From an uncultured Alphaproteobacteria bacterium (GTDB lineage: Bacteria; Pseudomonadota; Alphaproteobacteria; HIMB59; GCA-002718135), in NCBI GenBank assembly GCA_902539825.1, contig CACBMH010000001.1:930-64929 (forward strand): 64,000 nucleotides of DNA, given 5' to 3'. This document shows positions 36,106 to 36,189 of the stretch, piece by piece (the first letter of the stretch is position 1; the number at the start of each line of letters is the position of its first letter). The notes under the pieces were generated by a model. That model was not told the origin of the DNA, searched no databases, and saw only the letters and a program-made list of their open reading frames with translations. A program made the translations under genes and the position numbers.

Positions 36106-36189
36106 TTAACAGCAATCTCCACCTTCACAAGTGCAACAACAGCTGCAGCTGCAACCACACTTTGGTGGGTTTGGATTTTGATTTTTCAT
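36106..36189 (-). CDS. Candidate 27-aa cysteine-rich (metallothionein-like) peptide, unannotated micro-ORF
   Basis: ATG at 36189 with AGGTG 5 nt upstream. Translation MKNQNPNPPKCGCSCSCCCTCEGGDCC, stop TAA at 36106-36108. 9 of 27 residues are Cys. It sits in a local G+C island (31/60 G+C over 36111-36170 by my count) inside an otherwise almost pure A+T spacer. Confidence 0.55.
   Translation of the reverse strand: MKNQNPNPPKCGCSCSCCCTCEGGDCC

Follow-up and report, generated by a model that had tools for sequence, protein, structure and literature searches.

The 64-kb stretch of DNA analysed here (hereafter the window), from an uncultured marine alphaproteobacterium, carries on its minus strand a 27-codon open reading frame (ORF) which, judged by its pattern of change among related genomes, is a genuine coding gene whose protein sequence is kept by strong purifying selection. 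The encoded peptide, MKNQNPNPPKCGCSCSCCCTCEGGDCC, is probably a new minimal metallothionein-like thiolate-cluster peptide that would serve in buffering of Zn (or Cd/Cu), a reading to which we give a probability of about 55%. The peptide is tied genetically to the Zur/ZnuABC high-affinity zinc importer; metal binding, the metal concerned, the stoichiometry, the physiological role and the regulation are inferred from sequence and gene context. The ORF and its immediate surroundings are as follows.

36106-36189, minus strand: coding sequence of 27 codons plus TAA stop, encoding MKNQNPNPPKCGCSCSCCCTCEGGDCC (9 Cys), based on sequence and conservation.
36195-36199, minus strand: Shine-Dalgarno-like (SD-like) AGGTG, 5 nt before the ATG; its AGGT core (36196-36199) is invariant among 60 pirin-adjacent loci.
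36190-36229, no strand: A+T-rich divergent spacer of 40 nt from the peptide ATG to the pirin ATG, 5/40 G+C.
36039-36105, no strand: convergent spacer of 67 nt from the DUF1636 stop to the peptide stop, 4/67 G+C.

The frame was noticed in an earlier reading of the letters made without database searches (the sequence-only reading), and re-reading of the sequence confirmed the minus-strand start (ATG at 36189), the stop (TAA at 36106-36108) and the nine-Cys translation. Cys makes up 9 of the 27 residues (33%) of a peptide of 2786 Da with a grand average of hydropathy of -0.47 and with neither aromatic residues nor His. The layout is C11-G-C13-S-C15-S-C17-C18-C19-T-C21 plus C26-C27, giving four overlapping C-x-C motifs, one CCC and a terminal CC, with all nine Cys packed into 17 residues after a Cys-free, Pro/Asn-rich N-terminal decapeptide. 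The G+C island counted earlier, 31/60 over 36111-36170, was exact; the flanking spacers contain 6-12% G+C and the whole window 29%. The window allele uses the rare codons TGC and AGC (genome usage: TGT 84%, AGC 5%). Read out of frame, petB in the same window gives just as Cys-rich a sequence; Cys-richness by itself is no more than chance would give, the conservation pattern exceeds chance, and the case therefore rests on comparative evidence.

Upstream of the start codon, the AGGTG pointed out in the sequence-only reading is present in the window, but most related genomes have AGGTA (the AGGT core being constant across spacer haplotypes) and loci adjacent to murJ (architecture C, below) have no SD-like motif, so that its role as a ribosome-binding site is only putative. 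The 40-nt divergent spacer, which occurs in several divergent haplotypes while the ORF is conserved, must hold or overlap the promoters of both genes. The 67-nt convergent spacer was found in three unrelated haplotypes and contains no terminator-like hairpin.

Eighty loci were fetched from species-representative genomes using the pirin protein alone as bait. The unbiased set (n=60) consisted of the window and 59 loci with a pirin at least 91% identical; these were found by pirin synteny alone and were therefore not picked for having the peptide. Every locus with such a pirin carried the ORF, which was open in 59 of the 60, and all nine Cys were present in 58/60. The 60 copies comprised 30 DNA alleles with variable sites distributed 6/4/20 over codon positions 1/2/3 (binomial P = 2e-4). 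The pairwise ratio of nonsynonymous to synonymous differences per site (pN/pS) was 0.065-0.066 when read in the peptide frame, below that of the other five, compared with 0.080 for pirin in the same genomes (pS 0.23 for pirin vs 0.32 for the peptide). Nucleotide diversity was 0.01-0.10 in the ORF, 0.15-0.20 in the 5' spacer and 0.24-0.38 in the 3' spacer. These results bear out the selection on codons that had been suspected from base composition, and the conservation of frame and Cys positions with mostly synonymous change, for which the sequence-only reading had proposed to look.

A single metagenome scan with the pattern K-C-G-C-x-C-x-C-C-C-x-C returned 120 loci, 54 of which were true family members, the rest (~55%) being trinucleotide-repeat noise. 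The core PPKCGCSCSCCCTCE was invariant in the 54 copies; K10, G12 and seven Cys were fixed by the scan pattern, which makes their invariance there one of construction, and only the 60 synteny-derived loci are unbiased for residue invariance. The pattern-free positions S14, S16 and T20 were also invariant among the metagenome copies, and E22 and the terminal CC were retained. Variation was seen in residues 2-8 (KNQ, KNE, KNK, DNE, ENE, NSE) and in the linker 23-25 (GGD, GGG, SEG, GED, GEG, GRG). Genomes and metagenomes together provided 109 complete copies with 58 DNA alleles, in which TGT/TGC variation occurred at every Cys codon. An invariant Cys array with variable, Cys-free ends and linker is the pattern expected of a thiolate-cluster peptide in which the Cys array would be functional. 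A Cys-only DNA pattern, C-x-C-x-C-x-CCC-x-C, yielded CTG/CAG-repeat noise alone on viral contigs and was dropped as a family probe.

The gene lies in a zinc-uptake neighbourhood, for which the following features were identified.

29788-36229, no strand: 'zinc island' of ~6.4 kb, inserted between PolyA_pol (28997-29791) and pirin, with the peptide gene as its right-hand edge.
29788-30201, minus strand: Fur-family regulator, zur-like (Pfam PF01475).
30216-31762, minus strand: znuB (30216-31019) and znuC (31019-31762) (Pfam ABC-3, ABC_tran).
31785-31802, no strand: Zur-box-like palindrome GTAATATTATAACATTAC in the divergent znuC/znuA spacer, the sole copy in the window.
31840-33267, plus strand: znuA, encoding a long loop rich in His/Asp; constant partner of the peptide gene (Pfam PF01297, context survey).
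33339-34310, plus strand: COG0523 GTPase (Pfam/NCBIfam).
34307-35344, plus strand: WD40 protein (Pfam/NCBIfam).
35355-35609, plus strand: 84-aa protein (p84) without a Pfam or NCBIfam match.
35631-36038, plus strand: DUF1636 gene, convergent with the peptide gene (Pfam/NCBIfam).
36230-37087, plus strand: pirin gene, divergent and 40 nt from the peptide gene (Pfam).

This agrees with the earlier placing of the ORF at the distal end of a zur-znuCBA-COG0523 neighbourhood, convergent with DUF1636 and 40 nt from a divergent pirin gene. In distant relatives (L056, L060, L062, L067, L073 and L078) PolyA_pol, pirin and SpoU occur in the same order with nothing between them. The genes for COG0523, WD40, p84 and DUF1636 (33339-36038) are an optional part of the znuA operon, missing in some peptide-bearing relatives. 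In all 49 placeable metagenome contigs (49/49) the peptide gene and the znuA operon's last gene were arranged tail-to-tail, in three architectures and at two chromosomal positions. In architecture A the series znuA-COG0523-WD40-p84-DUF1636 faces the peptide gene, architecture B is A minus DUF1636, and in architecture C znuA faces the peptide gene directly and the cassette is located by murJ-trpS-nfu, not pirin. The facing gene is DUF1636, p84 or znuA and the neighbour on the other side pirin or murJ, with start codon, stop codon and 27-codon length retained in the three contexts. Linkage of the peptide gene to the znu cassette is strict, and the two travel together, a firmer connection to zinc than had been proposed. 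The emphasis first placed on DUF1636 and pirin was not sustained, as related loci can do without either; they are incidental neighbours, and znuA/zur-znuCB is the partner that stays constant.

The zinc cassette behaves as a relocatable, modular island in which mobility genes are not obvious. ZnuA of the window (31840-33267) contains a perfectly repetitive (HDD)n His/Asp loop at residues ~128-160, followed by HAHGAH, and a second HDHHDHHGHAHG stretch at residues ~300-312. The repeat often leads gene callers to split or truncate znuA, and many of its entries in databases are 151-157-aa fragments. The 84-aa protein has a C-x-E-P-D-C-P-P motif and, within the COG0523 operon of architectures A and B, is 71-100% conserved.

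The sequence GTAATATTATAACATTAC is a near-perfect 18-nt palindrome, the only copy in the 64 kb, which recurs with 0-1 mismatch in 31 related loci and in this lineage presumably serves as the Zur operator. In architecture C the peptide ATG is preceded, at ~7 nt, by the end of a conserved TTGAAA-16/17-TAATAA element and has no SD, which would fit a near-leaderless mRNA. The murJ-peptide spacer of that architecture measures 170-210 nt (L296 ~3290-3450, L282 ~10230-10430), long for a streamlined genome, and has a conserved block adjoining the murJ start as well as a short inverted repeat in which the changes look compensatory, then a T-run. A covarying hairpin in this spacer was considered and dropped given fold z-scores of -0.05 to -1.06 and no Rfam support.

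Metallothioneins are rare and poorly understood in bacteria. The size and Cys content of the class (below ~10 kDa, ~15-35% Cys) include the 2.8 kDa and 33% of the present peptide, which also has the motifs C-x-C, CCC and CC and no aromatics or His. Every sequence-level characteristic of metallothioneins is present in the predicted peptide, and to that extent the earlier metallothionein-like reading is partly supported. On the comparisons that follow, the peptide is outside every known metallothionein family.

The cluster of the animal metallothionein beta-domain is M(II)3Cys9. This domain and the 27-mer both have nine Cys in ~30 residues, prevalent C-x-C and no aromatics, and from this likeness a stoichiometry of three Zn/Cd is predicted for the peptide. 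The 27-mer differs in having its Cys within 17 residues, with CCC, in a stand-alone peptide, whereas the animal beta-domain is one domain of a two-domain protein. A nine-Cys MT3 beta-domain has been mentioned (PMC13107397).

The Cu-thioneins of Neurospora crassa and Agaricus bisporus are single-domain thiolate-cluster peptides of like size (25-26 vs 27 residues); the N. crassa sequence was verified as PDB 1t2y_A. They share with the 27-mer a composition of Cys, Gly, Ser and small polar residues only, without aromatics or His, and the local sequences CGCS and GCSCS. The fungal family-8 pattern C-x-C-x5-C-x-C-x3-C-x-C-x2-C (7 Cys) does not occur in the 27-mer, in which number and spacing of Cys differ: it has 9 Cys compared with 7 in the N. 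crassa metallothionein, in which CCC and the terminal CC are missing, and it has a Cys-free Pro/Asn-rich N-terminal decapeptide. The 27-mer is also bacterial and found in a zinc-uptake context, whereas the fungal Cu-thioneins belong to copper detoxification. A fungal metallothionein of 25-26 residues with 7 Cys binds 6 Cu(I) (PMC4755600, PMC13107397). The fungal-IV metallothionein of Yarrowia lipolytica (Ylip_MT), compared by description (PMC13107397), resembles the 27-mer in its central CCC and Cys-free N-terminal extension; metal in its Cu4Cys8-9 cluster is bound by every Cys, those of the CCC included (PMC13107397). Unlike the 27-mer, it is eukaryotic, longer and Cu(I)-specific.

In bacteria, the 27-mer may be likened to the cytoplasmic, Cys-rich, metal-sequestering class of BmtA/SmtA (Pfam PF02069), Pseudomonas metallothioneins and MymT. 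BmtA/SmtA proteins have ~55 residues, 9 Cys plus His, a zinc-finger-like fold and a Zn4 cluster; the 27-mer has no His, is half the size and lacks both an upstream Zur box and a Pfam match at E<=1, in keeping with the earlier statement that it is not of the SmtA/BmtA type. In marine Synechococcus, bmtA is under the same Zur that represses znuABC (PMC9337993; PMC7387436), and in strain WH8102 one Zur controls znuABC and the metallothionein (PMC9337993).

A different small protein was observed at the same place in a sister marine lineage, whose ZnuA C-terminal domain is 68-73% identical, where a highly charged protein of 78 aa directly follows znuA.

L321 4891-5127, L325 4635-4871 and L329 1069-1305, plus strand: 78-aa protein with a C-x-C-C tail (proteins P0121-P0188).

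Conservation covers its N-terminal 40 residues (…ISNLKGRKNYEEKKSKKLGFNSLYEY…), the C-x-C-C at its C-terminus does not vary (SCSCC, SCGCC, TCKCC, NCKCC), and it forms 68 clusters in the protein database without a Pfam match or name. Like the 27-mer it is small, unannotated and encoded immediately 3' of znuA, with a Cys-rich C-terminus ending in CC. It differs in having a charged helical N-terminal domain, 3 Cys and the same strand as znuA, and no sequence relationship to the 27-mer was found. The two may be functional analogues with the same end at the same position.

Database searches confirmed the sequence-only reading in that the gene is unannotated. Of four peptide forms looked up by exact sequence, the 27-aa and 29-aa ones among them, none occurs in a collection of 15 billion predicted proteins. 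When 1.84 billion cluster representatives were searched exhaustively with phmmer, there were eight matches, all of them the same peptide with spurious N-terminal extensions, besides one unrelated repeat protein; no separate relative of the peptide was found among these representatives. A functional gene below the usual length cut-offs would thus have been missed throughout, its correct form being absent from 15 billion proteins. Eight look-ups in lineages with ZnuA 56-73% identical did not find the peptide beside znuA. As far as these searches extend, the family is effectively unannotated and restricted to one sub-lineage, with no spread across Pelagibacterales in general.

If the peptide is a metallothionein, the ORF would be independently transcribed and translated into a 27-residue peptide, predicted to be cytoplasmic because it has no signal peptide. 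The nine thiolates would fold round a small metal-thiolate cluster, most likely M(II)3Cys9, as in the animal beta-domain, or Cu(I)4-6, as in small fungal Cu-thioneins. The peptide could then buffer or bank Zn(II) from ZnuABC, or capture Cd/Cu entering with it, in a streamlined oligotrophic marine bacterium.

Several points weigh against this interpretation. Metal binding and expression of the peptide are inferred from sequence and context. Part of the residue invariance in the metagenome copies, as said, was imposed by the scan pattern. Pfam and NCBIfam gave no match at E<=1 and phmmer against PDB none at E<=10. BLASTP of the 27-mer with the N. crassa metallothionein gave E = 0.12 over 14 residues, which is not significant, and with a mammalian metallothionein E = 0.13, indicating no homology. 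The peptide gene is convergent with the znuA operon and not co-transcribed with it, and a Zur-box-like site upstream of it was absent in all architectures, the best matches being at background level where control boxes had 0-1 mismatch, so that co-regulation with zinc uptake is only putative. One would not readily expect a storage thionein beside an importer for zinc starvation, as classical bacterial metallothioneins answer metal excess. Rare defective alleles also exist: L050 (P0196) has a 1-nt deletion in a G-run causing a C-terminal frameshift, L291 a nonsense change at codon 4 (CAA to TAA) and L236 an ATA in place of the start codon. Atypical TTG starts were found in L201, L218 and L250; these and the defective alleles may be sequencing errors or occasional loss. 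L031 has a GTG start, and L052 carries C11F and E22K.

It is unlikely, though conceivable enough to be taken seriously, that the peptide is instead a small protein with a regulatory or chaperone role in the zinc system, one that would sense or hand over Zn(II) and, for example, modulate ZnuBC, Zur or COG0523 by transient binding of low stoichiometry. There is precedent for such a role in the 42-aa MntS, which acts in manganese homeostasis of Escherichia coli. The strict linkage to zur-znuCB/znuA across architectures is what such a partner would show; the fixation of the whole core, with Pro-Pro-Lys, Gly, Ser and Thr as well as Cys, may point to a surface for a specific contact, and the C-x-C-C protein after znuA in the sister lineage suggests a recurring Cys-tail partner of ZnuA. 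However, nine Cys in 17 residues go far beyond one transfer site, and the peptide is kept with or without COG0523, WD40 and DUF1636, none of which can therefore be an obligatory partner. On present evidence this alternative is hard to tell from a metallothionein-like role.

Less credible is a conserved small protein unrelated to metals, for instance a redox or thiol buffer or a store of reduced sulfur, which would have come to lie next to znuA by historical chance, through sharing a mobile cassette. Such a protein would suit the dependence of SAR11-type cells on reduced sulfur, the lack of a Zur box before the peptide gene and the gene's apparent transcription on its own. Yet the linkage to znuA has outlasted at least two rearrangements removing up to four genes, as well as a relocation, which fits poorly with neutral hitch-hiking in a streamlined genome, and the Cys spacing is of the metal-thiolate cluster type.

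More doubtful still is a ribosomally synthesized and post-translationally modified peptide (RiPP) precursor, in which the polar N-terminus would be a leader and the C-terminus a core converted to thiazol(in)es, thioethers or a thiol metallophore, possibly a 'zincophore' working with ZnuABC. The C/S/T/G composition of the core does resemble that of azol(in)e-containing peptide cores and methanobactin-type precursors, and the metal importer is at hand. But YcaO, radical SAM/SPASM, LanB/C/M and MbnB-like proteins were not among the conserved neighbours in the flanking genes of the three architectures, a leader of 10 residues is too short for known recognition elements, and an invariant core with a variable 'leader' (residues 2-8) is the opposite of the usual pattern. 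The genome is streamlined, and ZnuA-type binding proteins take free Zn(II), not chelates.

Least probable of all is that the island is not translated and acts as DNA or RNA, be it as a small RNA, as a hairpin or bidirectional terminator between the convergent genes, or through the palindrome CAGCTGCAGCTG as a protein-binding site: the window allele does contain this perfect 12-nt palindrome together with the rare codons TGC and AGC, the island sits between convergent transcription units, and the antisense frame sharing third positions also has a low pN/pS (0.116), but in the commonest allele the changes AGC to AGT and TGC to TGT break the palindrome and leave the protein the same, folding on the two strands is not significant against shuffled sequence (z-scores -1.7 and -1.4), which together make an RNA or DNA element unlikely, variation has a three-nucleotide period, start, stop and length are constant across the three contexts, and neither terminator-like sites, Rfam matches nor a plus-strand ORF over the region were found. 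An intrinsic terminator or structured RNA was rejected on the fold z-scores, the Rfam and terminator nulls and the broken palindrome, and a leader peptide or attenuator because at all loci the next gene downstream (DUF1636, p84 or znuA) runs towards the peptide gene, leaving no co-directional target.

Should the metallothionein-like reading hold, the peptide would store zinc where it is scarce, or neutralise Cd/Cu imported along with it, at picomolar ambient metal, and would constitute an intracellular ligand pool not accounted for in oceanic Zn/Cd cycling. A Cys9 peptide hard-wired to that importer would add a new element to zinc homeostasis at ultra-low metal and would have its counterpart in the Zur-controlled pairing of uptake and metallothionein in marine Synechococcus (PMC9337993), although the peptide is unrelated and half the size. 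We suggest, more tentatively, that it might be the founding member of an unrecognised bacterial metallothionein family, the smallest known, and a dedicated partner of Zur/ZnuABC in an abundant uncultured marine alphaproteobacterium. With 27 residues, chemical synthesis is feasible and the hypothesis can be tested cheaply.

SAR11- and HIMB59-type lineages dominate the surface ocean. The related genomes were mostly GORG single-cell genomes labelled 'uncultured Alphaproteobacteria', with protein labels of 'Pelagibacteraceae bacterium' from metagenome-assembled genomes (MAGs). The nearest labelled relatives with the order PolyA_pol-pirin-SpoU-petABC were HIMB59-type MAGs, with ~70-76% pirin identity. 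The pirin cluster at 98% identity had 1,491 member sequences, indicating that the lineage is abundant, and the pirin homologues included no cultured strain. In SAR11-type genomes znuA is a patchy accessory trait, and these lineages were thought minimal in metal handling, with znuABC a notable exception (PMC4771312); AEGEAN-169/HIMB59 differs from SAR11 in trace-metal transport (PMC10308909). A search for literature linking metallothionein to SAR11- or HIMB59-type bacterioplankton turned up nothing beyond incidental co-mentions, and no paper was found to contain the peptide motif.

Two further observations concern the region upstream of pirin in more distant relatives. In L059 (2718-2960, plus strand), L061, L063 and L064 an 80-aa protein with two copies of C-x-C-x(8-9)-P-F-C-D-G-S-H, resembling the CDGSH iron-sulfur domain, precedes pirin, and immediately ahead of the pirin start codon lies an AT-rich element, TTGAAATTAATAAATTGATAACCATTTA, that is conserved. 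Elsewhere in the window, a bacterial small signal recognition particle (SRP) RNA was identified at 9900-9994 on the plus strand (RF00169, 54.6 bits), the sole Rfam family there above its gathering score.

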